The notes under the pieces are model-generated. The model searched no databases, was not told the origin of the DNA, and worked only from the letters and a program-made list of their open reading frames with translations. From positions 7,972-71,971 of the forward strand of contig NZ_JBKBQG010000017.1 in the NCBI RefSeq assembly GCF_046292825.1: a stretch of 64,000 bases of DNA. Reading direction: 5' to 3'. Shown here piece after piece: positions 1,766 through 16,084 of the stretch. The DNA is from Salinarimonas sp. (GTDB lineage: Bacteria; Pseudomonadota; Alphaproteobacteria; Rhizobiales; Beijerinckiaceae). The position numbers were made by a program, and so were the translations under genes. Position 1 is the first letter of the stretch; every line of letters begins with the position of its first letter.

Positions 1766-2311
1766 CTATGGCGCGCGGAACACGCGCAGGGACACGCGCG
1801 CGGGCTCGTCGAGCCAGATCGGCGGCCCGGCGACGAGGCCCGCCGCGTGCAGGAGCTCCTCGGCCGCGATCCCCGATTCGCAGGCGCGGAACAGGCCCCG
1901 CCCGCCGGGCAGTCGCGCGTCGTGCGCCCGCGCGAGGTGGAAGCTCGTAAAGCCGCCGGGACCGACATGATCGAACACGTCCTGCCCGCCCGGCACGCCG
2001 ATATCCCCGCCCTCCGGCACCGCTTGCGCCAGCGCCTGCGCGAGCGGGACGCGCGCGGGGTTCCACCAGAATCCGTCCGCGCGGCGCTCGAGACCGTCGG
2101 CCGAGCGCGACATCACGATGCGCAGGCGGTTTCGGTGATTGGGGCTCGCCTCGTGCGAGCGGCGCCCGAGCAGCGTCGCGCGCGCGGCGTCGAGGCCCGC
2201 CTGGAAATAGGCCCAGTCGGCGTCGTTGCGCAGGCAATCGGGAAAGCGCCCCTGCGCATCGGCGATGCGGTCGTCGGCGCTGACGATGGCGTAGGCGTGA
2301 AGGCGGTGCAT
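1766..2311 (-). CDS. dihydrofolate reductase-like / RibD C-terminal domain family protein
   Basis: Start chosen at MHRLHAYAIVSADDRIA. The pattern (IVSADGRIA-like N-terminus, GRRSHEA, PGGQDVF) resembles the RibD_C/DHFR-like family. Upstream ORF extension is low-complexity. Confidence 0.55.
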   Translation of the reverse strand: MHRLHAYAIVSADDRIADAQGRFPDCLRNDADWAYFQAGLDAARATLLGRRSHEASPNHRNRLRIVMSRSADGLERRADGFWWNPARVPLAQALAQAVPEGGDIGVPGGQDVFDHVGPGGFTSFHLARAHDARLPGGRGLFRACESGIAAEELLHAAGLVAGPPIWLDEPARVSLRVFRAP

Positions 2312-2365
2312 CGGGCTCCTCCGGCGGCGCCGATAGCAGAGGCGCGGACCTGCGTGAAGCGCGCG

Positions 2366-2391
2366 CGAACGCCGCGGGCGCTCCCGGCGTT
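2366..2391 (+). promoter_or_regulatory. candidate EcfG-type (general stress response sigma) promoter: cGAAC-N17-CGTT
   Basis: Sequence cgaac gccgcgggcgctcccgg cgtt lies 38 nt upstream of the ATG at 2429. It differs from the GGAAC-N16/17-CGTT consensus at one position of the -35 element. Confidence 0.35.
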
Positions 2392-2428
2392 GTTCCTCCG
2401 GCGACAGAACCCGCCAGGAGGGCGAGCC

Positions 2429-2623
2429 ATGCAGGACGAGCGCGAGAAGAACCAGAATTCGCAGACGCAGCCCGGACGGACGAAGGAGGACGCGGACCGC
2501 GAGCGGCCGCACCCCGCAGGACCGCATGCGCGGCGCGATCTCACCAACGAGGACGCCACCCCCGGCAGCGGCTCGCTGCCCGACGACGGCGCGAGCGGCG
2601 GGGTCGATCCCGCAGGCGGGTGA
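2429..2623 (+). CDS. small (64 aa) hydrophilic protein, hypothetical (stress-protein-like)
   Basis: ATG preceded by aggagg at 2416-2421. Sequence MQDEREKNQNSQTQPGRTKEDADRER... is charged and disordered. It is the 3' part of a longer spurious track ORF. Confidence 0.5.
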   Translation: MQDEREKNQNSQTQPGRTKEDADRERPHPAGPHARRDLTNEDATPGSGSLPDDGASGGVDPAGG

Positions 2624-2689
2624 GGCCCGCGCCGATGCGGACAGGGCCACCGCTTCTTCCGGTCAGCGTTCGAGAATCCTTGCCCGCTC

Positions 2690-2725
2690 GTCATTCCGGG
2701 CTTGGCTATCGCGCCCCGGAATGAC
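2690..2725. repeat. 36-bp palindromic mini-element resembling the termini of repeat families A/B
   Basis: gtcattccggg ... ccccggaatgac. The arms match the GTCATCCC(C)GG / CC(G)GGGATGAC termini of the 180-195 bp repeats except for one T/A pair. Confidence 0.5.
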
Positions 2726-2884
2726 GGCGATGAGAATCTCCGAAGGCGTTGCGATCCCTTTGGCGCGGAGAGGGGCGGCGCCTCGGAATCGGCGACGATG
2801 CGCAAATCGGATACCCCCCACGCGAGAGCGCCTCCCCCGTCGCCGGGAGAGGCGCTCGCATCGTCGTTGCGTTCGGGCTGCCGA

Positions 2885-3922
2885 TTACTCGGCCGGGACC
2901 GCTGCCGGGGTGGCGCCGCCGGGGCGGTCGGACTGCTTGCGGCGCGCCTCCTCGGCCCAGAGCGAGTGGTGCTCGCGCGCCCAATTGTAGTCGACCTCGC
3001 CCGAGCCCATCGCGTCGAAGGCGCCCTGCATGCCGATCGAGCCGATATAGATGTGGCCGATCATGACGGCGATCAGGATGGCCGAGACGAGCCCGTGGAC
3101 CATCTGGGCGATCTGCCAATTGGCATAGGTGCCGGCGAGATAGGGGAAGAGCAGCAGCACGCCGGTGACGGAGAGCGCCGCGCCGCCGATGATGACGGAC
3201 CAGAAGATGCCCTTCTGACCGGCATTGAACTTCTTCGCCTGCGGATGCACGCCCTTCGAGAACAGACCGCCGCCGGCCTTCAGCCAGGCGATGTCCGTGC
3301 GGTCGGGGATGTTGTCCTTGATCCACACGACGAGCATGAACACGAGGCCCGCCATGAAGGGGAAGGCGAGGTAATTGTGCGCGTACTTGCCGAGCTGGGT
3401 CGCGGCCGCGAAGGTCTCGGGCCCGAACAGCGGCAGCAGAACGTAGCGGCCGAAGACGAGGTTGAGCCCCGTGAAGGCGAGGATCAGGAAGGTCGTCGCC
3501 GTGAGCCAGTGCACGAAGCGCTCGAACGAGTTGAAGCGCAGGATCTTGATGCCCGACAGCCCGGAATCGACCGTGATCCTGCCGCGCATCAGGTAGAACG
3601 CGAGAACGATGGCGATCATGCCGACGATGGCGAGCGCGGACGCCCACAGCATCGTCGATTGATGGAACTGGCGCCATTCGGGGCCGCCGGGCTTGATCAG
3701 GCCGGTCGCCTTCTGGTCGGGGATCGTGACGCGACCCTCGATGCCCTGGCCGCGCTGGAGCTGCTGCAGGAGCTGCTGCTCCGTGACGGATTCGGCGCGC
3801 GGATTGACGGATTGGGCCTGCGCGATGCCCGGCAGCATCGTCGCGACGAGCGCGACGATCGCGAGCACGGCGAGCGCCGTGGCGAAATGTCTGGCGAAGG
3901 CGGAGAAGCTCGCGCGGAGCAT
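2885..3922 (-). CDS. fdnI: formate dehydrogenase gamma subunit (cytochrome b556, FdnI/FdoI family) with N-terminal signal/periplasmic extension
   Basis: Start MLRASFSAFARHF...AQA. Later there are four hydrophobic helices with conserved His (FERFVHWL, AHNYLAFPF, MVHGLV, IGHIYIG) typical of FDH-N cytochrome b. Last gene of the FDH operon. Confidence 0.85.
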   Translation of the reverse strand: MLRASFSAFARHFATALAVLAIVALVATMLPGIAQAQSVNPRAESVTEQQLLQQLQRGQGIEGRVTIPDQKATGLIKPGGPEWRQFHQSTMLWASALAIVGMIAIVLAFYLMRGRITVDSGLSGIKILRFNSFERFVHWLTATTFLILAFTGLNLVFGRYVLLPLFGPETFAAATQLGKYAHNYLAFPFMAGLVFMLVVWIKDNIPDRTDIAWLKAGGGLFSKGVHPQAKKFNAGQKGIFWSVIIGGAALSVTGVLLLFPYLAGTYANWQIAQMVHGLVSAILIAVMIGHIYIGSIGMQGAFDAMGSGEVDYNWAREHHSLWAEEARRKQSDRPGGATPAAVPAE

Positions 3923-4005
3923 GGGATATTCCTTCCCTGAACTGTGGTTTTCGAGGCGCGGGCGCCGCCGCAGGGCCGGACCCCGCGGCGGCGCGCAAAG
4001 CGACC

Positions 4006-4602
4006 TCAGATGGCGACGGTTTCCTTGTAGGCCGTCTGCCAGCCCCAGGCGCCCGAGCCGTAGCCGCGGGTGACGACGCGCTCGCGATAGATCTCGGCGA
4101 TGATCTCGCCGTCGCCGGCGAGCAGCGCCTTCGTCGAGCACATCTCCGCGCAGATCGGCAGCTTGCCTTCCGCGAGACGATTGGCGCCGTACTTCTCGTA
4201 CTCCACCGTCGACATGTCCGCTTCCGGACCGCCCGAGCAATAGGTGCACTTGTCCATCTTGCCGCGCGAACCGAAATTGCCGACGCGCGGGTATTGCGGC
4301 GCGCCGAACGGGCAGGCGTAGAAGCAATAGCCGCAGCCGATGCACAGGTCCTTCGAGTGCAGGACCACCTGATCGGCGGTGGTGTAGAAGCAGTCCACCG
4401 GGCACACGGCCGCGCAGGGCGCGTCCGTGCAGTGCATGCAGGCCATCGAGATCGATCGCTCGCCGGGCAGGCCGTCGTTGATCGTCACGACGCGCCGACG
4501 ATTGATGCCCCACGGCACCTCGTGCTCGTTCTTGCAGGCAGTGACGCAAGCGTTGCACTCGATGCAACGGTCCGCGTCGCAGAGGAACTTCATCCGAGCC
4601 AT
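4006..4602 (-). CDS. fdxH: formate dehydrogenase iron-sulfur (beta) subunit, 4x[4Fe-4S] ferredoxin type
   Basis: Cys clusters CIECNACVTAC, CMHCTDAPCAAVCP, CIGCGYCFYACP and CTYC...C. Sits directly downstream of the catalytic subunit. Confidence 0.9.
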   Translation of the reverse strand: MARMKFLCDADRCIECNACVTACKNEHEVPWGINRRRVVTINDGLPGERSISMACMHCTDAPCAAVCPVDCFYTTADQVVLHSKDLCIGCGYCFYACPFGAPQYPRVGNFGSRGKMDKCTYCSGGPEADMSTVEYEKYGANRLAEGKLPICAEMCSTKALLAGDGEIIAEIYRERVVTRGYGSGAWGWQTAYKETVAI

Positions 4603-4616
4603 AGTTCAAATCCCCC

Positions 4617-7568
4617 TTACGCGGCCGCGATCTGGCACAGAGTGACCTTGGTTTCCTGCATGCCGGTCACCGGGTCGTAGCCGTAGCTGGTCACGGTGTT
4701 CACGCTCTCGCCGAGAACGATCGGATCCGTGCCCAGCGGGTACTTGCCGCGCTGATCGGCGCCCTGGAACCAGCCGGCGAAGTGGAACGGCATGAACGCC
4801 ACGCCGGGACCCACGCGCTCCGTCACCAGCGCCTTGACGCGGGTGCGCGAGCGGTTCTCCGGACCGCTGACCCACACCCATTGCCCTTCCGAGATGCCGC
4901 GCTGGGCCGCGTCCGCCGGATTGATCTCGACGAACATGTCCTGCTGCAGCTCGGCGAGCCACTTGTTGGAGCGGGTCTCCTCGCCGCCGCCCTCGTACTC
5001 GACGAGACGGCCGGAGGTGAGGATGATCGGGAAGTCGCGCGCGATGTTCTTCTCGATCGCGGCCTTCTGCACCGTATGGCCGATATTCGGCATGCGCTGC
5101 TGGCGGAAATCGTCGCGGGTCGGGTACTGGGCGACGAGCTCCGTGCGCGGCGTGTAGATCGGCTCGCGATGGACCGGCACCGGATCGGGCAGGTTCCAGG
5201 CGACCGCGCGGGCCTTGGCGTTGCCGAAGGGCACGACGCCGTGCTCGAGGCAGACGCGCTGGATGCCGCCCGACAGGTCGGTCGACCAGGACACCGCGTC
5301 CACATTCTCACCGCCCTGACGCTCGATCTGGGCGAGTTCGGCGGGCGTGAGGTCCGCGTCCCAGCCGAGGCGCTTGAGGACGCCCATCGTGAACTCGGGA
5401 TAGCCGTCCGTCAGCTCCGAGCCGAGCGAGTAGGAACCCTCGGCCAGGAGGTTGACGCCGTCGCGCTCGACGCCGAAGCGCGCGCGGAAGGCGCCGCCGC
5501 CGTCCTTCACGTGCAGGTTCGTGTTGTAGAGGACGTGCGTGCCCGGATGGCGGATCTCCGGCTTGCCCCAGCAGGGCCAGGGCAGGCCGTAATAATCGCC
5601 GCCGACATCCGCGACGTCCCTGGGCGCGCGCAGTGTGACGAGGTCGAACGCCCCCTGGTTCGCCATGTGCGCCTTGATGCGCTCCGGCGACTGGCCGCAA
5701 TAGCCCGTCGACCAGCCGCCGGCATTGATCTCGCGAAGGATCGATTCCGGGGTCGGCTCGGGGCCGAACTTGCCGTCCACGAACTCGTAGTTCTTGAACA
5801 TCTCGTCGGCGAAGCCGAGGCGCTTGGCGAGCTCGAACATCACCCAGTAATCGTTCGAGGATTCGAAGATCGGCTCGACCACCTTCTGGCCCCACTGGAT
5901 GGAGCGGTTCGAGGCCGTGCGCGAGCCCTCGCACTCGAACTGGGTGCAGATCGGCAGGAGGTAGGTGTTGTCGCGCCGCTCGCCGAGCACCGCGAAGGTG
6001 GTCGGATGCGGGTCGGCGACGACGAGGAGGTCGAGGCGCTTGAGGCCCTCCGCGACTTCCGGCATGCGGGTGACGGTGTTGCCGCCGTGGCCGAACACCA
6101 TCATCGCCTTGACGTTGTCGCGCTGGTCGACGTCGTCGGCGGGCATCAGGACGGCGTCGAACCAACGCGTCGTGGTGATGCCGGGGGTCTCCATGTTCTG
6201 CTTCTGCGTGCGCGCCTCGCGGCCGCCCTTGGCGGGGACCTCGTCGAAGCGGGACTGCAGGTAGTCGTAGGAGACGCCCCAGACGCGCGCCCAATGGCGC
6301 CAGCCGCCCTCGGCGAGGCCGTAATAGAGGGGCAGCGTCGTGACGTCGAGGCCGAGATCGGTCGCGCCCTGCACGTTGCAATGGCCGCGGAAGATGTTGG
6401 CGCCCGTGCCGTCCGCGCCGACGTTTCCGGTGGCCAGCAGCAGCGTGCAATAGGCGCGCACGTTCGCGGTGCCGACCGTCTTCTGCGTCGCGCCCATGCA
6501 CCAGATGAGGGTCGAGGGCTTCTGCGTGGCGAAGAGCTCGGCGACCCGGCGCAGCTGCGCGCCCGGCACGCCGGTGACGCGCTCGACCTCCTCGGGCGTC
6601 CACTTCGCCACCTCGGCGCGGACCTCGTCCATGCCGTAGACGCGGCTCTCGATGAAGGCCTTGTCTTCCCAGCCGTTCTCGAAGATGTGCCAGAGCATGC
6701 CCCAGATCACCGGGATGTCGGTGCCCGGACGGATGCGGACGTACTCGTTGGCATGCGCCGCCGTGCGCGTGAAGCGCGGATCGATGACGATCATGTTGGC
6801 GCGGTTGATCTCCTTGCCCGTCAGCACGTGCTGGAGGGAGACCGGATGCGCCTCCGCGGGATTCCCGCCCATGATGATCATGGTCTTGGAATTGCGGATG
6901 TCGTTGTAGGAATTCGTCTGGGCGCCGTAGCCCCAGGTGTTGGCGACGCCGGCGACGGTCGTCGAGTGGCAGATGCGCGCCTGGTGGTCGACCGAGTTCG
7001 TGCCCCAGAAGGCGGCGAGCTTGCGGTAGAGATAGGCGCCCTCGTTGGAGAACTTGGCGGAGCCGAGCCAGAACACCGAATCGGCGCCCGACGTCTGACG
7101 GATCTCGCCGAGCTTCGCGGCGATCTCGTCGAGCGCCTCGGCCCAGATGGTGCGGACCCACTGCCCGTTGACCATCTTCATCGGATACTTGAGGCGGCGG
7201 TCGCCATGGACGAGCTCGCGCACCGCAGCGCCCTTGGCGCAATGGGTGCCGCGGTTGATCGGGCTCTCCCAGGCCGGCTCCTGGCCGACCCAGACGCCGT
7301 TCTGCACCTCGGCGATCACCGTGCAGCCCACCGAGCAATGGGTGCAGATGTTCTTCCTGCGCTCCACGGGAGCGCCCGGGATCATCGGGCCGGCCTCGGC
7401 CTTGCGGACCGCGCCGAGCGACAGGGTCGAGGCGGCGGCGATGCCGCCGACCGCGATCCCGGAGCGGCGCAGGAAGGTGCGGCGGTCCATCACCGCGCTG
7501 GCGGCGGCGGCGACGACGGCCGGGTGGCGGCCGCGGCGCGCCTCTGCGGTCTTGCGCTTGATCAGCAT
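4617..7568 (-). CDS. fdnG: formate dehydrogenase-N-type catalytic (alpha) subunit, molybdopterin oxidoreductase, Tat-exported, cysteine type
   Basis: Twin-arginine signal MDRRTFLRRSG. N-terminal Fe-S motif CTHCSVGC...C. Active-site region HQARICHSTTVAG has Cys where E. coli FdnG has Sec, and the ORF has no in-frame TGA. Start MLIKRK (7568) has ggagg 8 nt upstream; an alternative start is MDRRTF at 7490. Confidence 0.9.
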   Translation of the reverse strand: MLIKRKTAEARRGRHPAVVAAAASAVMDRRTFLRRSGIAVGGIAAASTLSLGAVRKAEAGPMIPGAPVERRKNICTHCSVGCTVIAEVQNGVWVGQEPAWESPINRGTHCAKGAAVRELVHGDRRLKYPMKMVNGQWVRTIWAEALDEIAAKLGEIRQTSGADSVFWLGSAKFSNEGAYLYRKLAAFWGTNSVDHQARICHSTTVAGVANTWGYGAQTNSYNDIRNSKTMIIMGGNPAEAHPVSLQHVLTGKEINRANMIVIDPRFTRTAAHANEYVRIRPGTDIPVIWGMLWHIFENGWEDKAFIESRVYGMDEVRAEVAKWTPEEVERVTGVPGAQLRRVAELFATQKPSTLIWCMGATQKTVGTANVRAYCTLLLATGNVGADGTGANIFRGHCNVQGATDLGLDVTTLPLYYGLAEGGWRHWARVWGVSYDYLQSRFDEVPAKGGREARTQKQNMETPGITTTRWFDAVLMPADDVDQRDNVKAMMVFGHGGNTVTRMPEVAEGLKRLDLLVVADPHPTTFAVLGERRDNTYLLPICTQFECEGSRTASNRSIQWGQKVVEPIFESSNDYWVMFELAKRLGFADEMFKNYEFVDGKFGPEPTPESILREINAGGWSTGYCGQSPERIKAHMANQGAFDLVTLRAPRDVADVGGDYYGLPWPCWGKPEIRHPGTHVLYNTNLHVKDGGGAFRARFGVERDGVNLLAEGSYSLGSELTDGYPEFTMGVLKRLGWDADLTPAELAQIERQGGENVDAVSWSTDLSGGIQRVCLEHGVVPFGNAKARAVAWNLPDPVPVHREPIYTPRTELVAQYPTRDDFRQQRMPNIGHTVQKAAIEKNIARDFPIILTSGRLVEYEGGGEETRSNKWLAELQQDMFVEINPADAAQRGISEGQWVWVSGPENRSRTRVKALVTERVGPGVAFMPFHFAGWFQGADQRGKYPLGTDPIVLGESVNTVTSYGYDPVTGMQETKVTLCQIAAA

Positions 7569-7582
7569 CTGGCTGCCTCCCC

Positions 7583-7798
7583 TCAGTACCGGTTGGTCCG
7601 GTAGAAATTCTCGACGTGCTCGGTCTTCTGGTAGCGGGCGCGACGCTTGTCGTCGGCGCCCTGCGCCTGAGCCGGGCTCGCGGCGATCGGCGCCACGACG
7701 GCGGCGGCCGCGACGGTGCCGACGCCGCCCACCGCCTTCAGGAAGCCGCGCCGATCGACCGCTTTCGGATCCGGCGTCTTGTCGTCGAACTTGCCCAT
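7583..7798 (-). CDS. small Tat-signal protein of formate dehydrogenase regions ('FDH region TAT target' family)
   Basis: 71 aa. Contains DRRGFLKAVGGVGTVAAAAV...AQA, a twin-arginine signal. Lies immediately upstream of the alpha subunit, as I recall for this family. Confidence 0.7.
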   Translation of the reverse strand: MGKFDDKTPDPKAVDRRGFLKAVGGVGTVAAAAVVAPIAASPAQAQGADDKRRARYQKTEHVENFYRTNRY

Positions 7799-7897
7799 GT
7801 CCGGGTCCTCCCAAGTCGCGGGCGCCGCGCGGCCCCCCGCTCGTACAAAGCCGTGGACGGTGCGGAACCGCCCGAATACGTCACCGGACGCGCCCGC

Positions 7898-8695
7898 TCA
7901 CGCGTCCATCGCGAAGGCTTGCGCCTCGATCTCCACGAATTCCCGCCCGAGCGTGCCCACCGTGCGGTAGAACCGCGAGGAGGGCGCGATCTCGAGATCG
8001 GCGAAGAATCGCGCCGCCCAAGGCTTCAGGTGGCGCTCGAAGAAGCCCTTCTGGGCGGTCTCCTCGGCGTCGAAGCGACCGGCGGCGAGGCCGGCCATCA
8101 CGTCGCAGAGGATGGCGATGTGGTCCTCGGGGTCCTTGAGCGTGTCGACCCGCTCGATGCCGAGCGAGGCGAGATCCGCGCGCACCGAGGCGAGCGGGCG
8201 CTCGTGCAGGAAGCCCGTCAGATAGAAGGAGGCGTAGGGCAGCAATTCGCCGCGCCCGAGCCCGATGAAGAGGTCGAAGAATTCGCGCTGCACCGCCTCG
8301 ACGCTCGTCGCGCGCGCGGCGTCCGCGAGCGCGAGATGGGCCATGCCGATCGGCGTCGCGTCGCCCTTCAGCGCGGCGAGGGCGGCGAGCGTCTCCGCAC
8401 CCGGCGCGCGGCCGAGGAGATGGGCGAGGAGGTCGTATTCGCGGGCGCGCAGGAGGTCGATCTCGTCGATCTCGGGGGCGGCGCTCTCGTTGTCGTCCAA
8501 CGCGTTCTCTTCCGGATACAGGTCTGGGCGCAACCGCGTGCGCGGAACTCCGGTCGCGGTCTCGACGGCGAGGACGCGCTCGGCGGGGATCTTCTGCCAA
8601 TTCGAGACGGAGGGCTGCGAGATGCCGAGCGACCGCGCGAGCGCACCGACGCCGCCGGCGGCGCGGATCGCCATGTCGAGCCCGTTCTCCCGCAT
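7898..8695 (-). CDS. fusion protein: N-terminal Cro/YdaS-like HTH domain + C-terminal TorD/DmsD-family redox-enzyme maturation chaperone
   Basis: N-terminus AIRAAGGVGALARSLGISQPSVSNWQKIP is a Cro/YdaS-type HTH. The C-terminus (REFFDLFIG...LPYASFYL...DPEDHIAILCDVMA...FFERHLKPWA) carries TorD-family motifs. Confidence 0.75.
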   Translation of the reverse strand: MRENGLDMAIRAAGGVGALARSLGISQPSVSNWQKIPAERVLAVETATGVPRTRLRPDLYPEENALDDNESAAPEIDEIDLLRAREYDLLAHLLGRAPGAETLAALAALKGDATPIGMAHLALADAARATSVEAVQREFFDLFIGLGRGELLPYASFYLTGFLHERPLASVRADLASLGIERVDTLKDPEDHIAILCDVMAGLAAGRFDAEETAQKGFFERHLKPWAARFFADLEIAPSSRFYRTVGTLGREFVEIEAQAFAMDA

Positions 8696-8740
8696 TCGTT
8701 TCCCCGAACCGCAACCGGCCGCCTTCTTCGGGACGGCCTC

Positions 8741-8801
8741 TTTCGAACGGGTTCATAGTAGAGGGCTATGGCGCGCCGGCCAAGTGTTTCGAATGGTTTC
8801 A
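8741..8801. promoter_or_regulatory. two 15-bp direct repeats (TTTCGAACGGGTTCA / TTTCGAATGGTTTCA) upstream of the HTH-TorD gene; candidate operator
   Basis: 13/15 identical, starts 46 bp apart. They lie in the 103-bp gap between the DUF3306-like stop and the HTH-TorD start. The second copy sits in a near-palindrome tgtttcgaatggtttcaaaca. Confidence 0.3.
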
Positions 8802-9533
8802 AACAGGCCGAGCGCGGCCGTGCCGGCGCGACTTTGGTCTAATTTCGCCCTCTTTTCGCGCGTTTTCCGCGTTTGCCGGCGAGCCCTCCGCCGCCTCGCG
8901 CAAATCCTTTGCGGGCAAGGCTTCCGGGGATTGCGACGCGGCAACCTCCCGCTGCGGGGTGTCGGCCGGGCCGTCCGCGGGTTCGGCGCGCTCGTGCGGA
9001 TCTGCGTCTTTTGGTTCCGCGTCTTCAACCGCCTGCGACGCGATGTCGCGATCCCCCATTGGCTCGCGCTCTTCGACTTTCGGCGAAGTGCCGCGGAATA
9101 TCTTCTCCGCCAAGGCCTTGGCGTCGAAGTCCGCCGGCAGCGGACCCGATCCGGGGACGCCGCCGGGCACGTTCCAGTCGTAGGCGTATTCGCGCGCGGG
9201 ATCGAGATAGCCGGCGATCTTCGGATCGCTCGCCCAGGCGCGCCGCAAGGCCGCGTTGCGCAGAACGGCGGGAACGCCCTTCCTGAGGAAAGCGGTGATG
9301 TCGGTCGAGGCGTCGATCGATTCGACCGGGGGGAGGGCGGCGAGCTCCTCCTCGGAGAGGGTCTCCTCGACGGGGGTCGGCGCGGCGGCCTCGGGCTCGG
9401 GCGCGTGCTCCTCCGCGGCTTGGTCTTCCGGCGCCTCGGCCGGCGCGGCGCGCGTCTCCTCCTCCGCGATCGCCCGCTTGCGGCGCGACCAGCGCGAGAG
9501 GAAACCCTCGCCGTCGTCCCCGCCGCCGCTCAT
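8799..9533 (-). CDS. DUF3306-like protein (acidic, Pro/Ala/Glu-rich; FDH-associated)
   Basis: Start MSGGGDDGEGFLSRWSRRKR. Conserved-looking block ITAFLRKGVPAVLRNAALRRAWASDP...DWN. The start overlaps the stop of the upstream gene (tcat at 9530-9533). DUF number assigned from memory. Confidence 0.65.
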   Translation of the reverse strand: MSGGGDDGEGFLSRWSRRKRAIAEEETRAAPAEAPEDQAAEEHAPEPEAAAPTPVEETLSEEELAALPPVESIDASTDITAFLRKGVPAVLRNAALRRAWASDPKIAGYLDPAREYAYDWNVPGGVPGSGPLPADFDAKALAEKIFRGTSPKVEEREPMGDRDIASQAVEDAEPKDADPHERAEPADGPADTPQREVAASQSPEALPAKDLREAAEGSPANAENARKEGEIRPKSRRHGRARPV

Positions 9534-10051
9534 CGCCCGCCCTCCTCGTCGTCGTCGAGGCCGAGCACGCGCGGTGCGCGGCGCGCGAGCGCCTCCGGAT
9601 CGGCCTTCTTGCGCTTGCGCTTGAAGAATTCGCGCTCCACGTGAAAGGCTTCGTAGAAGGCCCCGATCGCGCTCGCGATCTCGGGCGGCATCGGCACCGC
9701 CTCGAGGATCAGCCCGGCATCGCCCGCGAGCGCCTCGCCCTCGTAGGGATCGGCCGTGACGACGGCGATCGAGACGCCGTCGCCGGCCTCTCGCAGCGCC
9801 ACCCAGAGCGAGGGCCGGCCCGATTGCAGATTGTCGCGATAATGCGCCGTCTCGCCGGGATGCAGCGTCAGCTCGGCCGGGCCGACATACCAGGTCTCCT
9901 GCGCGCCCTCCGGCGTCAGCCGCGTCATCGGCGCCGTCGGCGGCGCGAGCGGCAGCACGGCGCTCGGCGCCCACGAGACCGGCGGCGCCCACTTGTTCGT
10001 CGACACCCGCCGCGTCGCGACGACGCCCAGCGTGAAGCGTGAGTTCGTCAT
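9530..10051 (-). CDS. DUF3305-like protein (FDH-associated)
   Basis: 173-aa complete ORF (MTNSRFTLGVVATRR...), translationally coupled to the next gene. DUF number assigned from memory. Confidence 0.65.
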   Translation of the reverse strand: MTNSRFTLGVVATRRVSTNKWAPPVSWAPSAVLPLAPPTAPMTRLTPEGAQETWYVGPAELTLHPGETAHYRDNLQSGRPSLWVALREAGDGVSIAVVTADPYEGEALAGDAGLILEAVPMPPEIASAIGAFYEAFHVEREFFKRKRKKADPEALARRAPRVLGLDDDEEGGR

Positions 10052-10083
10052 GGATTGCCTCGTGTTTCGAGCGCGAACTCCGG

Positions 10084-10264
10084 GGTGTCATCCCGGACGC
10101 CGAAGGCGATCCGGGACCCATACGCCCGACGGCTCAGTCGCAGCCTGTAGGCTGCGTTTCTCCGACGAAAGCTGCTCAAAGGGAGCGAAACGAGCGCGGC
10201 ATGCGCGCTCGAACGATGGTCGAGCGTATGGGTCCCGGGTCCGCTTCGCGGCCCGGGATGACAC
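10084..10264. repeat. family A intergenic palindromic repeat (MITE/REPIN-like), copy A1
   Basis: ggtgtcatcccggacgccgaaggcgatccgggaccca ... tatgggtcccgggtccgcttcgcggcccgggatgacac. Conserved core cagtcgcagcctgtaggctgcgtttc and gagcgcggcatgcgcgctc. Near-identical copies at 15902, 53178 and 63378. Confidence 0.85.
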
Positions 10265-10394
10265 TCTCCGAAGGATTCACGGACTTTCAGGGGATCGAGG
10301 CGGCGCGCCGTCGGCGACGGCGCGAGCGCGCTTTCCGCCCGCATTCCCTCACCCCTGCCCCTCTCCCTTCCGGGAGAGGGGTTCTCGCACCCCG

Positions 10395-11399
10395 TCACGA
10401 CGCATTCTCCCGCAACGGCAGCCCCATCACCAGGTTCTGCGGCTTCACGCGCACCACCTTGTCCGCGCTCATCGCGAGGATGAGCCAGACGGGGTGGCCC
10501 TCGACGCGCGGGTCGACCGGGGCGTGGCGGGCGAAATCGAGGCGGAAGAGGGCGAGCACGCGCATGCGGTCGTCGAGCGACACGGTCTCGCCGCGCCAGA
10601 GCCGGTTGCCGATCGCGGTCGCCTCGGCGTCGAGCCCGACGAACCAGCGCCAGTCCTGGTCCTCGATCTCGACCATCGGCTCGACCCGCGCCTCGATCCC
10701 CATGAGGTGGCGCAGGAAGATCTCGATCGCGCGCGCGAGCCCGGCCCGCGCCTTCTGCGCCGCGCCGATCGCCATCGCCATGGTGTGGGCGTCCGAGCGG
10801 CTCCAATAGGTCCAGGCATTGCCGTCGTCCATCACGTCGAGCTCGTCGGCGAGGGACTTGTCGAGCATGGCGACGAGGGGCGAGACCGGGGCGCGGCCCT
10901 CGAATTCCTCGATGAGTTCGGCATCCGCGAGGATCGCCCCGCCGTCGCCGGTCGAGACGCGCTGGGGGCGGAAGAAGAGCTCGGCCGCGCGCAGGACGTA
11001 AGGGTCGTCGCAGCCGTCGAGCGCGTTGCGCAGGATCAGATGCAGGAGCTGGTTCAGGAAGAGCGGCGGCACGACGGCGCCCGTCCGCACGAGCGAGAGC
11101 CAGGCCGCCTCGATCGAGCCCGCGGCGACGAGCCGGTCGCGATAATCGACGAAGAAGGTCCAGTTCTCCCGCGCGTCCGGATCGGCGATCGCGGCGATCT
11201 CGTCCGGCGAGACCGTGCGGCGGGGGCTCTCGAGGAGGCTCGCATGGAGCGCGCGCTCGGCCGGGCAGGCCTCCTCCGGGGGCAGGATCTCGGGGCGCGC
11301 GAGATAGGCGGTGAGGAGCTCGTCCGTCACGGCGAGCGTGCCGTCCGGCAGCCGGCGGGTGAGGTGGTGTCCGCTCGAGACCCAGAACTCGCGGCTCAT
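10395..11399 (-). CDS. conserved hypothetical protein (I recall PGAP naming homologs DUF6352)
   Basis: Start MSREFWVSSGHHL. Its ATG overlaps the stop of the upstream gene (ATGA at 11396-11399). 334 aa, soluble, no catalytic motif recognised. Confidence 0.6.
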   Translation of the reverse strand: MSREFWVSSGHHLTRRLPDGTLAVTDELLTAYLARPEILPPEEACPAERALHASLLESPRRTVSPDEIAAIADPDARENWTFFVDYRDRLVAAGSIEAAWLSLVRTGAVVPPLFLNQLLHLILRNALDGCDDPYVLRAAELFFRPQRVSTGDGGAILADAELIEEFEGRAPVSPLVAMLDKSLADELDVMDDGNAWTYWSRSDAHTMAMAIGAAQKARAGLARAIEIFLRHLMGIEARVEPMVEIEDQDWRWFVGLDAEATAIGNRLWRGETVSLDDRMRVLALFRLDFARHAPVDPRVEGHPVWLILAMSADKVVRVKPQNLVMGLPLRENAS

Positions 11400-11953
11400 C
11401 GCTCGCTCCCGTCCTTCATGAGACCCAACAGGTCGACATGTTCCTCCACTTCGTCCTCGCTCTCGACGACTATGAAGGCCTTGGCGTGGCTGTACAGGCG
11501 GTCGGCGCCCGGCGCGCCGGGCTCGCGATGGCGCAGCGTGCGGAACTGCTCGACGATGCGTCCGTCCTTCACGGTGCGGTGCATGGCGATGAGCGTGCCC
11601 TCGGCATGCCCCTCGCACAGGGAGGCCGCATAGGCGATCTCCTCCGCGGCGGCCGTGCGCGCGTGTTCGAGCGTCGGCGGCGCGAAGCGCTCGGCGATGT
11701 GCGCGGCGAGCGCGGCGATCGCCGCCTCGCGCTCCTCCGGGGTCGCGGGCGTCGCGACGACGAGCGTCGAGAAGCCGAGGCTGCCGACGCCGACGAAGCC
11801 CGCGCGGAAGGCCGCACGTTCCTTGTTGGAGAACGCCTCGATGTCCTTGTCCCAGAAGAGGAACGTCCCCGTCACCGCCCATTCGCCGGGCTCGGCCGGG
11901 TGCGCGAAGACGAAGGTGTCGGAGGGGTCGAGCCGGATCGTGCGCGGCAGCAT
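11396..11953 (-). CDS. conserved hypothetical protein (I recall PGAP naming homologs DUF6505)
   Basis: Start MLPRTIRLDPSDTFVF, five intervening nucleotides after the stop of the BPL-like gene. 185 aa, soluble. Confidence 0.6.
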   Translation of the reverse strand: MLPRTIRLDPSDTFVFAHPAEPGEWAVTGTFLFWDKDIEAFSNKERAAFRAGFVGVGSLGFSTLVVATPATPEEREAAIAALAAHIAERFAPPTLEHARTAAAEEIAYAASLCEGHAEGTLIAMHRTVKDGRIVEQFRTLRHREPGAPGADRLYSHAKAFIVVESEDEVEEHVDLLGLMKDGSER

Positions 11954-11958
11954 CGGGC

Positions 11959-12705
11959 TCACAGGCGCGGCCCCCGACGCGTCTCGTCGTACCAGGCGGG
12001 CGCGGCGAGCGCGGGCAGGAGCGCGCGTCGCTCGGCGCCGGTGACGCCGTGGCGGTGGACGAGGAGATCGCCGTTGCCGTCGATGCCCCGCCGCTCGCCC
12101 GCCTTCTCGCGCTTGAGGCGGGCGAGATAGACGTCCGCGACCTTTCGGAAGCCGCGATTCGCCCACGCATCGACATGCACCATCAGGTGGCGCGCGAAGC
12201 TCTCGATCAGAACGCGCGGCTCCCCGAAACCCTCCTCCTCGAGCGAGGTCGAGAGCGGCATCAGCCCGCTCTCCGTCAGCGCCATGCGGGCGGCGATGAG
12301 CTGGCACCCGAAGACGAGCCAATCGGGCACCGCGTCCTCGGGCGTCCCCTCGGGCCAGCCGAGCCGTCCGCCGCCGATCAGCGCGCCGTCGTAATGGATC
12401 GTGTCGGGCCACAGGAACTCGACCGATTTCTCCGGCGGGCAATGGGCCGCGATGGCGTCGGCGACCGCCGCCATGCCGGCGAAGAAGGCGCGGCGCGCCG
12501 ACACGAGCGGCTCCTCGGGCTCCAGCACGACGGCGAATTCGACGAGATCGTAGCGCCCGACATGGACGAGCGTGCCGGCGCCCGCTTCGCCTGCGATGGC
12601 GCAGGCATGCGCGAAGGCGTCCCCGCGCTCGCGCAGGCGCACGGGCGTGAACAGAGGCGGCAGATCGAGCGCGTCGGGCCCGCGCGCGGGTTGCGTCTGC
12701 GGCAC
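11959..12705 (-). CDS. biotin/lipoate protein ligase (BPL/LplA/LipB-fold) family protein, divergent
   Basis: 248 aa. The segment EFLWPDTIHYDGALIGGG resembles the KWPND(L/I)...G(I/L)G strand of BirA/LplA catalytic domains. No GRGRxGR biotin loop is visible. First gene of a three-gene coupled unit. Confidence 0.55.
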   Translation of the reverse strand: MPQTQPARGPDALDLPPLFTPVRLRERGDAFAHACAIAGEAGAGTLVHVGRYDLVEFAVVLEPEEPLVSARRAFFAGMAAVADAIAAHCPPEKSVEFLWPDTIHYDGALIGGGRLGWPEGTPEDAVPDWLVFGCQLIAARMALTESGLMPLSTSLEEEGFGEPRVLIESFARHLMVHVDAWANRGFRKVADVYLARLKREKAGERRGIDGNGDLLVHRHGVTGAERRALLPALAAPAWYDETRRGPRL

Positions 12706-12861
12706 GTTGGCTTTCCTCCCGTCACCGGCTTTCGGCGGACCGTCTTTGGGTCTATTCTAACATAAACCGATTTGCGACAAGAGCGACGGACGTGCCGGTG
12801 GGGTCGCGGGCACGCCGCAGCCGAAAGTCGATCCGCCTCGATCCACCGGGAAGAAGCGTCC

Positions 12862-14901
12862 GTGTCCGACACAAAGCGTATCGTTTTCGCCTGCTCGTGC
12901 GAAAAGACCATGCCGCTCGACGAGGCCGCGCTCGCCGCCGGCTGCGGCGGGCGGCTCGAGACGGCGACCCAGCTCTGCGTCTCCGAGATCGAGCGGGTCA
13001 CGGACGCGCTGATGCGCGGCGAGCGCGTCACGATCGGCTGCACCCAGGAGGCGCCGACCTTCGAGGACGCAGCCGAGGATGCCGGGCTCGAGGAGCCCGC
13101 TCTCGCCTTCGTCAACATTCGCGAGGCGGCGGGCTGGTCGCGCGAGGCGAAAGAGGCGGGGCCGAAGATGGCGGCGCTTCTCGCGGCCGCGTCCGTACCG
13201 GTCTCGCCCGTGCAGCTCGTCGCGATGGAATCGGAGGGCGTGATCCTCATCCTCGGCCGCGACGAGACCGCGATCGAGGCGGGCCGCCGCCTCGCCGATC
13301 ATCTCGACGTCACCGTGATGCTGGAGCGCCCCGGCGAGATCGCGCCGCCGCGCCGGGCGGACTTCCCCGTGGTGAAGGGGCGCGTGCGCAAGGCCGCGGG
13401 GCATCTCGGCGCCTTTGCGCTCGAAATCGACGATTACGCGACCGCCGCCCCGTCCTCGCGCGCGGCGCTCCGCTTCGGCGAGGGGCGCGACGGCGCGCGC
13501 TCGGAATGCGACATCGTGCTCGATCTGCGCGGCGAGCGCCCGCTCTTTCCCGCCGACGATCTGCGTCCGGGCTATCTGCGCGCCGATCCGCGCGATCCGG
13601 CCGGCGTCGAGCGGGCGATCTACGAGGCGCGCGACCTCGTCGGAACCTTCGACAAGCCGAAATACGTCGCCTTCGATCCGGGGCTCTGCGCCCATTCCCG
13701 CTCGAAGATCGTGGGCTGCACGCGCTGCCTCGATCTGTGCCCGACGGGCGCGATCGCGCCCGCCGGCGATCACGTCGCGATCGATCCCCATGTCTGCGCC
13801 GGCTGCGGCCAATGCGCGGCCGCCTGCCCGACGGGGGCGGCGAGCTATGCGATGCCCAATGTCGAGACGCTCGGCGCGCGCCTGCGCACGATGCTGCGGG
13901 CCTATGCGCAAGCGGGCGGGCGCGACGCCGTCCTCCTCTTCCACGACGGCGAGCACGGCGAGCCGATGATCGACGCGCTCGCCCGCTTCGGCGACGGGCT
14001 GCCGGCGCGCGCGATCCCCGTCCAGGTGAACGAAGTCACGCAGATCGGCCCCGAGATCTTCGCCGCCGCCTTCGCCTATGGTGCGGCCGGCGCGCGGGTG
14101 CTCGTGCGCGAAAAACCGAAGCACGAGATCGTCGGGCTCGAGCGCACGCTCGCCACCGTCGAGACGATCCTCGTCGCGCTCGGCTTCGGCGAGGCGCCCG
14201 TCGGCATCGTCTCGACCGACGATCCGGACGCGCTCGGCGCCGCCATGCGCGAGGCCTGCGCGGCGCGCGCGGGGCGGGCGGCGGCGGTGCCGGCCTCCTT
14301 CCTCGCGGTGCCGAAGAAGCGCGCGATGCTCGAACTCGCGTTTCGCGAATTGCACCGCGTCGCGCCAGCGCCCGTGCCGGTCGTCGCGCTCGAGCGGGGC
14401 GCGCCCTTCGGCGGGATCGTGGTCGACGTCGCCGGCTGCACGCTGTGCCTCGCCTGCGTCTCCGCCTGCCCGGCCGACGCGCTCTCCGACAATCCGGACC
14501 GCCCGACCGTGCGCTTCACGGAATCGAACTGCGTTCAGTGCGGATTGTGCGCGGCGACCTGTCCGGAAAAGGTGATCAGCCTCGAGCCCCGCCTCGATTT
14601 CGCCGCCTGGGCCGAGCCCAAGCGGCTGATCAAGGAGGAGGAGCCCTATCCGTGCGTCTCCTGCGGCAAGCCCTTCGGCACGCGGGCGACGATCGAGCGC
14701 GTGATGGCGAAGCTGTCGGGCACCCATTGGATGTTCTCCGGCCCCGACGGCGAGCGCCGCTCCCGCGTCCTGCAGATGTGCGAGGATTGCCGCGTCGAGA
14801 CGGTCGTCAACGACAGCTTCGACCCGCACGAGATCGAGCGCATGAAGCCGCGCACCACGGACGATTACCTGCGCGAGCGCAAGAGCGAGACGGAGCACTG
14901 A
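12862..14901 (+). CDS. large (about 680 aa) 4Fe-4S dicluster poly-ferredoxin-like protein
   Basis: GTG start (VSDTKRIVFACSCEKT) after gggaagaag. Two ferredoxin pairs: CTRCLDLCP + CAGCGQCAAACP and CTLCLACVSACP + CVQCGLCAATCP. A C-terminal Cys cluster CVSCGKPF...CEDC. Divergent from the BPL-like gene. Confidence 0.8.
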   Translation: MSDTKRIVFACSCEKTMPLDEAALAAGCGGRLETATQLCVSEIERVTDALMRGERVTIGCTQEAPTFEDAAEDAGLEEPALAFVNIREAAGWSREAKEAGPKMAALLAAASVPVSPVQLVAMESEGVILILGRDETAIEAGRRLADHLDVTVMLERPGEIAPPRRADFPVVKGRVRKAAGHLGAFALEIDDYATAAPSSRAALRFGEGRDGARSECDIVLDLRGERPLFPADDLRPGYLRADPRDPAGVERAIYEARDLVGTFDKPKYVAFDPGLCAHSRSKIVGCTRCLDLCPTGAIAPAGDHVAIDPHVCAGCGQCAAACPTGAASYAMPNVETLGARLRTMLRAYAQAGGRDAVLLFHDGEHGEPMIDALARFGDGLPARAIPVQVNEVTQIGPEIFAAAFAYGAAGARVLVREKPKHEIVGLERTLATVETILVALGFGEAPVGIVSTDDPDALGAAMREACAARAGRAAAVPASFLAVPKKRAMLELAFRELHRVAPAPVPVVALERGAPFGGIVVDVAGCTLCLACVSACPADALSDNPDRPTVRFTESNCVQCGLCAATCPEKVISLEPRLDFAAWAEPKRLIKEEEPYPCVSCGKPFGTRATIERVMAKLSGTHWMFSGPDGERRSRVLQMCEDCRVETVVNDSFDPHEIERMKPRTTDDYLRERKSETEH

Positions 14902-14990
14902 AGCCGGCGGCGGCATGACGCGCCGCCGCGCCCGAACGCCTCGCCCGCCGCGCCGTTGACCCTCCTCGACGACCCACCGAGGAGGCGATC

Positions 14991-15809
14991 TTGGGTGAGA
15001 CCGGCATCAGGCTCGATCTGACGGGCCAGACGGCGATCGTGACGGGCGCGTCTTCCGGCATCGGCGCGGGGATCGCGCGGCTGTTCGGGCGCGCCGGCGC
15101 GAACGTCGTGATCAATTACCGATCGAGCGAGGACGGCGCGCGCGAGACGCTCCGCGCGATCGAGGATGCGGGCGGCACGGGCCGCATCGTGCAGGCGGAC
15201 GTGTCGCAGGAGGGCGACGTGAAGCGCCTGTTCGAGGAGGCGTGCGACGCCTTCGGCACCGTCCACGTGCTCATCGCCAATGCCGGCCTCCAGCGCGACG
15301 CGCCCGCCCACGAGATGAGCCTCGCGGATTGGAAGACCGTTCTCGACGTCAACCTCACCGGCCAGTTCCTCTGCGCGCGCGAGGCGATCCGGCTGTTTCG
15401 CGCGCGAGGCCCGGTGCCGGAGGTATGCCCGGCGCTCGGCAAGATCGTGTGCATCTCCTCCGTCCACCAGTTCATCCCCTGGTCGGGGCGCGTGAACTAT
15501 GCGGCGTCGAAGGGCGGACTCCTCCTGATGATGCAGTCGCTCGCGCAGGAATATGCGGGGGAGAAGATCCGCATCAACGCCATCGCGCCCGGCGCGATCA
15601 AGACCGCCATCAACCGCTCCTCCTGGGACGACCCGGCCGAGCGCGAAAAGCTCCTGGATCTCATCCCCTATGGCCGCATCGGCGAGAGCGAGGACGTCGC
15701 CCGCGCAGCCCTGTGGCTCGCGAGCGACGCCAGCGACTACGTCACCGGCGAGACGCTGGTGGTGGACGGCGGAATGGCGCTCTATCCGGGGTTCCGGGAG
15801 GGAGGGTGA
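14991..15809 (+). CDS. short-chain dehydrogenase/reductase (glucose 1-dehydrogenase-like SDR)
   Basis: TTG start after gaggagg. Motifs TGASSGIG, NAG and SSVH...YAASKGG (catalytic Y-x3-K). Confidence 0.85.
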   Translation: MGETGIRLDLTGQTAIVTGASSGIGAGIARLFGRAGANVVINYRSSEDGARETLRAIEDAGGTGRIVQADVSQEGDVKRLFEEACDAFGTVHVLIANAGLQRDAPAHEMSLADWKTVLDVNLTGQFLCAREAIRLFRARGPVPEVCPALGKIVCISSVHQFIPWSGRVNYAASKGGLLLMMQSLAQEYAGEKIRINAIAPGAIKTAINRSSWDDPAEREKLLDLIPYGRIGESEDVARAALWLASDASDYVTGETLVVDGGMALYPGFREGG

Positions 15810-15901
15810 CGCCCCCCGCCAAGGCGAGGGACGTCCGTCGCGCTCCCTCGCTTTCGCTCGAGAAGCCTCTCCTTTCCCGGAGAGCTCGTACAATCTCCAA
15901 G

Positions 15902-16084
15902 GGTTGTCATCCCGGGCCGCGAAGCGGACCCGGGACCCATACGCTCCACGACCGCACGAGCGCGCATGCCGCGCTCGCTGCGCTACTTTGGAGCGTCGCT
16001 CGTCGGAGAAACGCAGCCTACAGGCTGCGACTGAGACGTGGTGGTTATGGGTCCCGGATCGCCTTCGGCGTCCGGGATGACACC
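15902..16084. repeat. family A repeat, copy A2 (inverted orientation relative to A1)
   Basis: The reverse complement aligns with A1 over the termini and the cagtcgcagcctgtaggctgcgtttctccgac core. Confidence 0.85.

Follow-up and report, generated by a model that had tools for sequence, protein, structure and literature searches.

The genes described here lie in a 64,000 nt stretch of DNA from Salinarimonas sp. (contig NZ_JBKBQG010000017.1, positions 7,972–71,971 of the forward strand; hereafter, the window). Within it, six genes—encoding a poly-ferredoxin, a protein of the biotin protein ligase (BPL)/LplA/LipB fold, and members of the families DUF6505, DUF6352, DUF3305 and DUF3306—adjoin an operon for a periplasmic formate dehydrogenase (FDH) that carries a twin-arginine translocation (Tat) signal. 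Ten genes are transcribed from the minus strand, in the order BPL, DUF6505, DUF6352, a 343-bp gap, DUF3305, DUF3306, TorD, Tat protein, FdhA, FdhB and FdhC (Table 1). The window has a GC content of 71% and contains many overlapping open reading frames, over which the frames of the module are preferred on account of their third-position GC (0.82–0.95). An earlier reading of the same DNA (the original prediction) had located the five minus-strand genes of the module and the divergent poly-ferredoxin gene, and had described the five as a BPL/LplA-fold protein, two soluble unknowns and a DUF3305/DUF3306-like pair; every coordinate it gave is correct, and the DUF or ligase-fold assignments of all five are borne out by Pfam scores above the gathering cut-offs.

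Table 1. Features of the formate dehydrogenase locus and the genes upstream of it (positions are those of the window)
Feature	Position	Strand	Basis
poly-ferredoxin, 679 aa	12862-14901	+	Pfam Fer4 families; divergent to BPL operon
divergent intergenic control region, 156 bp	12706-12861	.	GC content and conserved box
BPL_LplA_LipB_2 (PF16917), 248 aa	11959-12705	-	194.6 bits; cut-off 27; residues 15-194, profile positions 1-182/183
DUF6505 (PF20115), 185 aa	11396-11953	-	178.5 bits; cut-off 23.9; residues 2-145
DUF6352 (PF19879), 334 aa	10395-11399	-	180.4 bits; cut-off 25; residues 4-288
inverted-repeat insertion, like a miniature inverted-repeat transposable element (MITE) or repetitive extragenic palindrome (REP)	10085-10264	.	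arms and core motif
DUF3305 (PF11749), 173 aa	9530-10051	-	110.1 bits; cut-off 25; residues 8-146, profile positions 2-140/140
DUF3306 (PF11748), 244 aa	8799-9533	-	81 bits; cut-off 25; residues 10-122, profile positions 1-116/120
TorD/DmsD-family chaperone with N-terminal helix-turn-helix (HTH)	7898-8695	-	PF02613, PF15943; start ATG 8695
small Tat-signal protein, 71 aa, FdhX-like	7583-7798	-	TIGR02811, borderline
formate dehydrogenase alpha (FdhA)	4617-7568	-	Pfam Molybdop_Fe4S4, Molybdopterin, Molydop_binding
FDH3-type beta (FdhB), 198 aa	4006-4602	-	NF038355 FDH3_beta
cytochrome b gamma (FdhC), 345 aa	2885-3922	-	PF01292; TIGR01583

The five minus-strand genes of the module had been described as a translationally coupled string. 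The coupling is real and can be read directly in the sequence: ATGA overlaps join DUF6505 to DUF6352 (11396–11399) and DUF3305 to DUF3306 (9530–9533), and a spacer of 5 nt (11954–11958) separates the BPL stop codon from the DUF6505 start. The string itself, however, is broken between DUF6352 and DUF3305 by the 343-bp gap (10052–10394). This gap holds an inverted-repeat element with 46-nt arms that are 85% complementary and lie 88 nt apart. Its core, GGGACCCATACGC, is present in six copies in the window (0.07 expected), with other copies at 15932, 23810, 53207 and 63518. Inserts of more than 150 nt are found at the DUF6352|DUF3305 junction in 7/79 related loci as well, a recurrence that marks the junction as the boundary of two sub-modules; the inverted repeat is an insertion at the point where these meet, and lies outside the system proper.

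The 156 bp that separate the BPL operon from the divergent poly-ferredoxin gene are, as originally described, AT-richer than their surroundings: their GC content is 0.622, compared with 0.71 for the window, which places them among the lowest 4.6% of segments of that length. A conserved box, TTTATGTTAGAATAGACC, lies on the minus strand (complementary to 12749–12769), and the Hyphomicrobiales loci (L001–L078) have a TATAC/TT-type AT-rich box at the same place, about 55 nt before the BPL start. Judged by sequence, the TTTATGTTAGAATAGACC box is likely to be a −10 element of the BPL operon, the first gene of which has a GGAGG ribosome-binding site ahead of its GTG start at 12705. In some Methylobacterium loci the box reads CGCTATATA, a sequence that resembles a Mo-box half-site. 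A reading of the AT-rich box as a ModE-type Mo-box was dropped, because across loci it resembles an ordinary −10 element (TATACT). A scan of the operon strand for consensus promoters and terminators gave nothing, and an Rfam scan of positions 2000–16000 found neither a molybdenum cofactor riboswitch nor any other known RNA.

The same set of genes recurs in other genomes. A scan of one genome per species returned 448 stretches with DUF6352 relatives, of which the closest 80 were retrieved. Of the 54 related Hyphomicrobiales loci whose 10-kb flanks are complete, 53 share the order and orientation of all ten genes (poly-ferredoxin, divergent from BPL-DUF6505-DUF6352-DUF3305-DUF3306-TorD-FdhABC). 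This order is also seen (i) on plasmids of Sinorhizobium and Bradyrhizobium, at 47–54% identity, where most junctions, as annotated in RefSeq, overlap by 4 nt, (ii) in metagenome contigs of the Joint Genome Institute (JGI), and (iii) on a fragment from Rubrimonas (Rhodobacterales). The window's own DUF6352 protein is 100% identical to the NCBI entry 'DUF6352 family protein [Salinarimonas sp.]', a genus in the Hyphomicrobiales. In a tblastn search of 72,556 plasmids, the BPL-like protein matched 84 records and DUF3305 matched 88; the two are found in the same taxa, 4–5 kb apart.

Further afield the genes are rearranged, and yet stay together. Firstly, plasmids of Roseobacters (Sulfitobacter, Sagittula) carry DUF3305-DUF3306-TorD-FdhX-FdhABC on one strand and poly-ferredoxin-DUF6494-Mrp/ApbC-BPL-DUF6505, without DUF6352, on the opposite strand. 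Secondly, in Azospirillum the BPL gene lies directly upstream of DUF3305-DUF3306-TorD-FdhABC. Thirdly, in Rhodospirillales (a Thalassospiraceae genome, Caenispirillum and a metagenome-assembled genome, MAG) the poly-ferredoxin gene is divergent from FdhD-MobA-DUF3305-DUF3306-TorD-FdhX-FdhABC, where MobA and DUF3305 come either as one fused protein or as two genes whose junctions overlap, and FdhD-MobA fills the slot held here by BPL-DUF6505-DUF6352. Fourthly, two distant Pseudomonadota contigs (L096, L097) show FdhB-FdhC-WD40/cytochrome c, followed at some remove by DUF6494-BPL-DUF6505-DUF6352, the poly-ferredoxin gene on the opposite strand, and then DUF3305-DUF3306. That a linkage survives such rearrangement is the strongest evidence for a real conserved unit, and it excludes chance adjacency. 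What had been offered without verification, that homologous sets recur next to FDH genes in other Alphaproteobacteria, is verified by the 53 Hyphomicrobiales loci together with these four further architectures.

Beyond the poly-ferredoxin gene, 39–43 of the 54 related loci carry a MoeA-PBP_like fusion (NF011068), a second MoeA-like gene, and a gene encoding a WD40 beta-propeller with cytochrome c (L005–L033, L081, L082, L088, L096, L097). A TupA-like binding protein adjoins the Roseobacter module, and TupA-like ABC transporters are encoded near other loci; mobA and fdhD lie nearby in Sinorhizobium, and MoaA in L094. A further locus, L092, consists of a poly-ferredoxin gene divergent from FdhD-MobA::DUF3305, with no FDH genes nearby. 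Two side observations concern the WD40 position: the WD40-cytochrome c gene of L096 and L097 comes immediately after fdhC, and its product may be the electron acceptor of the dehydrogenase; and in the present window, the place beyond the poly-ferredoxin gene where relatives carry the MoeA-PBP and WD40 genes is occupied by a short-chain dehydrogenase/reductase gene (14991–15809).

The enzyme next to the module had been labelled FDH-N-type. This label is wrong: FdhA scores 304.3 bits against the FDH-N alpha model TIGR01553, far under the cut-off of 814.2, and the match to a further FDH-N model, TIGR01582, is 52.3 bits (cut-off 334.7). The enzyme is instead of the FDH3 type (FdhX-FdhA-FdhB-FdhC). 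FdhB reaches 338.6 bits against FDH3_beta (cut-off 240) and FdhC 163.4 bits against its gamma-subunit model (cut-off 115.85), while the small Tat protein is borderline, at 48.2 bits against the 'formate dehydrogenase region TAT target' model and just under its cut-off of 48.45. FdhB contains four Fe-S motifs and no membrane anchor (maximum hydropathy 1.18); FdhA has a Tat signal (DRRTFLR) and an active-site sequence, ICHSTT, with cysteine rather than selenocysteine. FDH-N (E. coli FdnGHI), by comparison, has a C-terminal membrane anchor on its beta subunit and selenocysteine at its active site. The gene for the small Tat protein, which sits between the TorD-like gene and fdhA, is missing from the original prediction. 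Its product has a DRRGFLK motif and a conserved C-terminal end of the YRxTxHVxxFY type, and its Shewanella counterpart has been named FdhX (PMC13066108). The FdhC protein far exceeds in length the E. coli FdnI-type profiles of ~210 aa that it matches (models of 211 and 217 positions): a signal-like hydrophobic stretch and then ~90 aa of soluble sequence precede the cytochrome b domain, which begins at about residue 120.

Two genes upstream of fdhA, and directly downstream of DUF3306, lies a true member of the TorD/DmsD/NarJ family of chaperones, which includes FdhM of Campylobacter and FdhT of Shewanella. The protein matches PF02613 (Nitrate_red_del) at 114.4 bits (cut-off 22.2) over residues 112–232, and the gene is linked in this way to a Tat-exported molybdoenzyme. 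It has an added N-terminal domain, a YdaS/Cro-type HTH (57.4 bits, residues 6–62), and the five proteins encoded upstream of it are unrelated to the family. Orthologues in Roseobacters and Rhodospirillales are 189–223 aa long and have no HTH. A DNA-binding TorD chaperone could couple maturation with regulation, and the HTH is also one of three features by which the module might be taken for a regulator of FDH3 expression that senses Mo/W or redox status, the others being the HTH_17+PBP_like and LysR+PBP_like regulators encoded near related loci, and the conserved basic, K/R-rich motifs of DUF3305 and DUF3306. We regard a regulatory function of this kind as highly improbable: none of the six proteins has a recognizable DNA-binding or signalling domain, six co-transcribed and translationally coupled proteins would be unusual for a regulator, and the MobA fusion indicates cofactor chemistry.

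An exhaustive profile search places the DUF3305 family in 1053 clusters at 50% identity, among whose longer members are a MobA (NTP_transf_3)+DUF3305 protein and two single chains that combine DUF3305 with DUF3306 (P0271, P0374). In Rhodospirillales the MobA::DUF3305 fusion is a stable and widely distributed form, with dozens of clusters at 90% identity that cover a range of 40–100% identity, and it already constitutes a curated NCBI family, NF011058. Two further candidates were set aside: an FdhD+MobA 'fusion' (P0471), on a short contig with fragmented pieces of fdhD, was not used as evidence, and a DUF3305+GSDH protein (P0388) looks chimeric. For DUF3305 and DUF3306, which exist elsewhere as one protein, the suggestion that coupled genes encode stoichiometric complexes is strengthened. 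The DUF3306 protein is conserved in its N-terminal 120 residues, while its C-terminal half is acidic and of low complexity. Both families have been termed putative membrane proteins (PMC4464133); here neither has a transmembrane segment. The same is true of all five DUF and BPL proteins, for which the maximum 19-residue hydropathy is at most 1.47 and no transmembrane-like segment or signal peptide is found. An AlphaFold2 model of DUF3305 has a mean predicted local distance difference test score (pLDDT) of 90.5, and a Foldseek search with this model found no neighbour in the PDB (best E 0.24, template modelling (TM) score <0.2).

The most constant partner in the related loci is the poly-ferredoxin, present in 75 of the 80. 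It contains two 2x[4Fe-4S] ferredoxin domains (Fer4 matches only at residues 281–330 and 519–577), with ~190 aa between them. To these are added an N-terminal Cys-bearing domain, a C-terminal CxxC...CxxC knuckle and an invariant PRTTxDY tail; the conserved cysteines were read from an alignment of eight orthologues of 43–62% identity, and the three non-ferredoxin segments match no Pfam domain, even at E=10. The Caenispirillum orthologue of the protein, encoded beside FdhD-MobA::DUF3305, shares 47% identity with it along the whole length. A known protein that it resembles is NapF, which together with NapD belongs to the periplasmic nitrate reductase system. NapF is cytoplasmic, has four [4Fe-4S] clusters, and is encoded with NapA, a Tat-exported bis-molybdopterin guanine dinucleotide (bis-MGD) enzyme whose Fe-S assembly and stability require NapF prior to export (PMC10609526). 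The poly-ferredoxin is likewise cytoplasmic, with four [4Fe-4S] motifs and a gene linked to that of a Tat-exported molybdoenzyme. It differs in being roughly four times larger, with three extra unassigned domains and the C-terminal Cys4 knuckle, and against the NapF model TIGR00402 it scores 45.2 bits (from the ferredoxin motif only; cut-off 102.2), which makes it an analogue of NapF rather than a member of the family.

The original prediction had offered, besides maturation, a cytoplasmic electron-transfer partner. In such an electron-transfer arm, the poly-ferredoxin and its DUF partners would dock on the cytoplasmic face of FdhC in the manner of DsrMK or Hdr, and link periplasmic formate oxidation with a cytoplasmic acceptor or donor. 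The constancy of the poly-ferredoxin would suit such an arm, as would the unusual N-terminal extension of FdhC and the arrangement of at least four [4Fe-4S] sites and two further Cys sites, which is wire-like and more than most chaperones possess. We nonetheless think it unlikely. The L092 locus has the poly-ferredoxin and FdhD-MobA::DUF3305 with neither FDH nor cytochrome b nearby, and a cofactor pathway fits this arrangement better than does an enzyme subunit. In Roseobacters the poly-ferredoxin gene heads an operon that contains an Fe-S carrier ATPase. The fusions and adjacencies, moreover, are with the cofactor-synthesis proteins MobA and FdhD and not with redox enzymes, and Pfam scans of the module found no flavin, NAD or CCG-type acceptor domain.

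The BPL-fold protein was the basis of another suggestion, a post-translational-modification pathway. Its fold family is shared with BirA, LplA and LipB (PF16917 clan), and there are weak profile matches to BirA structures; the closest solved relative is PDB 3BFM ('biotin protein ligase-like protein of unknown function'; E 2.5e-66), itself a function-unknown entry from structural genomics. In a weak alignment of the family profile with M. tuberculosis BirA (E 0.03), the WP(D/N) motif is matched, but the catalytic Lys of BirA (GGKLAGIL) aligns with Leu, Ile or Val. When nine homologues, drawn from five lineages, are compared, invariance is confined to Pro, Gly, Ala, Val and Trp; no Lys and no polar residue is common to all nine. 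Given the absence of a catalytic Lys and of any invariant polar residue, the protein looks like a pseudo-ligase; sequence conservation suggests that it is probably non-catalytic, with the signature of a scaffold rather than of an enzyme. It further differs from BirA, LplA and LipB in having no repressor domain and no acceptor domain nearby: no lipoyl or biotinyl acceptor domain was found in the module or in any related locus examined, though acceptors elsewhere in the genome are possible.

These observations weaken the idea of a ligase pathway. In the fullest form of this idea, the BPL-fold protein would be an active ligase that modifies a Lys of DUF6505 (K44) or of an FDH subunit with either a carboxylate cofactor or an adduct of a new kind, and DUF6352 would be an auxiliary enzyme. 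Apart from the fold itself, this would account for the pairing and translational coupling of BPL with DUF6505, whose Lys is invariant (GK.R.AF motif), and for the many invariant, enzyme-like polar residues of DUF6352. It is very unlikely in view of the hydrophobic residue at the catalytic-Lys position and the lack of an invariant polar residue; the want of acceptor domains in the loci and the occurrence in Azospirillum of BPL without DUF6505 speak against it too.

Where DUF6505 is present, it always follows BPL (Hyphomicrobiales, Roseobacters, L096 and L097). Its invariant residues are D9, S11, D12, E24, W25, K44, E104, E105, R126, E135 and R138, while those of DUF6352 include C45 and H231. 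The AlphaFold2 model of DUF6352 has a pLDDT of 85.1 and a predicted TM score (pTM) of 0.86; Foldseek found no neighbour for it in the PDB (best E 0.97, TM <0.2). With the DUF3305, DUF6505 and DUF6352 sequence profiles, no chain in the PDB matched below E 0.06, and profile-profile comparison detected no internal homology of DUF6505 with either DUF3305 or DUF6352. In the architectures seen, DUF6352 and Mrp/ApbC are mutually exclusive (L084 and L085 versus L096 and L097; a small sample), which may reflect non-orthologous displacement and hints at an equivalent role. The Roseobacter Mrp gene, which scores 347.5 bits against an ApbC model with a cut-off of 348, belongs to the poly-ferredoxin operon, where it is joined to the BPL-like gene by translational coupling. 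No ApbC/Mrp gene is present in the window.

Taken together, the neighbours and fusions of the module—FdhD, MobA, TorD, MoeA, MoaA, ApbC/Mrp and the TupA-like transporter, the last representing uptake genes of the tungstate/molybdate type—favour maturation, the first of the two readings in the original prediction, over the second, an electron-transfer partner. From gene context and fusions, we consider it more probable than not that the six proteins form a cytoplasmic cofactor-loading module for the FDH3 enzyme, acting before export. Such a module would load the FdhA/FdhB precursor, ahead of Tat translocation, with a sulfurated bis-MGD (with Mo or W) and five Fe-S clusters. We envisage four steps: (i) MoeA and MobA, encoded elsewhere in the genome, would make bis-MGD, and FdhD, also encoded elsewhere, would sulfurate it; (ii) a DUF3305/DUF3306 heterodimer would act at the hand-over from MobA/FdhD to apo-FdhA, which would be held by the TorD-like chaperone; (iii) the poly-ferredoxin, like NapF, would supply or insert Fe-S clusters, or would keep the cofactor reduced; and (iv) the BPL-fold protein, its ligase chemistry lost, would serve as a scaffold or a ligand-binding subunit. 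BPL and DUF6505, with DUF6352 in this lineage, would constitute a lineage-specific add-on sub-module, the Roseobacter version of which includes the ApbC/Mrp Fe-S carrier.

Known maturation factors provide partial parallels. FdhD binds and sulfurates bis-MGD (PMC10609526). The Rhodospirillales FdhD (FdsC)-MobA pair occupies the operon position of BPL-DUF6505-DUF6352, immediately upstream of DUF3305-DUF3306-TorD-FDH; its members have no similarity in sequence or predicted fold to BPL, DUF6505 or DUF6352. Since Sinorhizobium has both mobA and fdhD besides the module, the module adds to FdhD and MobA and does not replace them. FdhE, which has iron-binding CX2C pairs, is needed only for Tat-exported formate dehydrogenases (PMC10609526). 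The CxxC...CxxC knuckle of the poly-ferredoxin is reminiscent of it, as a motif-level lead only: FdhE is a protein of ~300 aa with four CX2C pairs, and no homology between the two was detected. The absence of fdhD and fdhE from the window, as originally predicted, is supported: tblastn found no homologue of FdhD, nor of MobA, in the window, and a heuristic motif search found there no FdhE-like protein with four CxxC motifs.

Several points weigh against a cofactor-loading module. Its components are not mutually obligatory, given that Azospirillum has no DUF6505, DUF6352 or nearby poly-ferredoxin, and that the Rhodospirillales loci have no BPL, DUF6505 or DUF6352. The sole full-flank exception among the Hyphomicrobiales, a Saliniramus MAG (L008), has poly-ferredoxin-BPL-DUF6505-DUF6352 (6557–11011) beside a MoeA-PBP fusion, with no DUF3305, DUF3306 or FDH within 10 kb; downstream lie instead genes for a metallo-beta-lactamase, an aminotransferase and an HD-domain protein. 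This may be a break in the MAG assembly or a true separation. For these families, the case is built on gene context and fusions throughout, and the predicted structures of DUF3305 and DUF6352, having no PDB neighbours, yielded no functional clue. At 679 aa, with four or more clusters, the poly-ferredoxin is large for a mere cluster donor. Finally, active Shewanella FdhAB has been obtained from a plasmid carrying only fdhT, fdhX, fdhA and fdhB (PMC13066108); this result is no test of the idea, because the host retained chromosomal SO4503–4506.

A more specific proposal can be made, although we think it fairly unlikely. In it, DUF3305 and DUF3306 would be a new class of bis-MGD hand-over or carrier protein, operating between MobA/FdhD and apo-FDH, and BPL, DUF6505 and DUF6352 would perform an unknown step of cofactor processing or Fe-S delivery, the two together making up a second, FdhE-independent route for Tat-exported FDHs. 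The step assigned to BPL, DUF6505 and DUF6352 would involve a ligase fold turned to a task other than ligation, besides two folds for which no relative has been solved.

The five genes had been said to have no established function, and no functional study was found for any member. The module is, however, not wholly undescribed. A survey of NarJ-family chaperones recognized a TorD/DmsD-fdh operon class in which DUF3305, DUF3306 and a fer4 gene lie upstream in 60% (Bay et al. 2015; PMC4464133). In a Shewanella transcriptome table, SO4503 (fdhD), SO4504 and SO4505 (hypothetical), and SO4506 (Fe-S) co-vary (PMC2535785). Literature searches on the DUF names, the Pfam accessions and the Bradyrhizobium and Shewanella locus tags returned only this survey and this table; no paper was found on DUF6352, DUF6505 or DUF6494, or on a link between the BPL-like family and FDH. 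What appears to be new is the link of BPL, DUF6505 and DUF6352 to FDH, and with it a putative maturation system that is dedicated to a molybdoenzyme and includes components not described before.

For the reduction of CO2, metal-dependent formate dehydrogenases are catalysts of the first rank, and their heterologous production often fails without the right maturation factors. Questions listed as open in reviews include the proofreading of periplasmic FDHs that have no FdhE, the delivery of sulfurated bis-MGD, and the identity of the Fe-S inserter (PMC10609526). The locus described here names six candidate genes, among whose products are two confidently predicted folds without a solved relative and one ligase fold seemingly without ligase chemistry. 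All six genes are deletable in tractable hosts. They are conserved across Alphaproteobacteria; for three of them, those encoding DUF3305, DUF3306 and the poly-ferredoxin, the conservation apparently extends to Shewanella.

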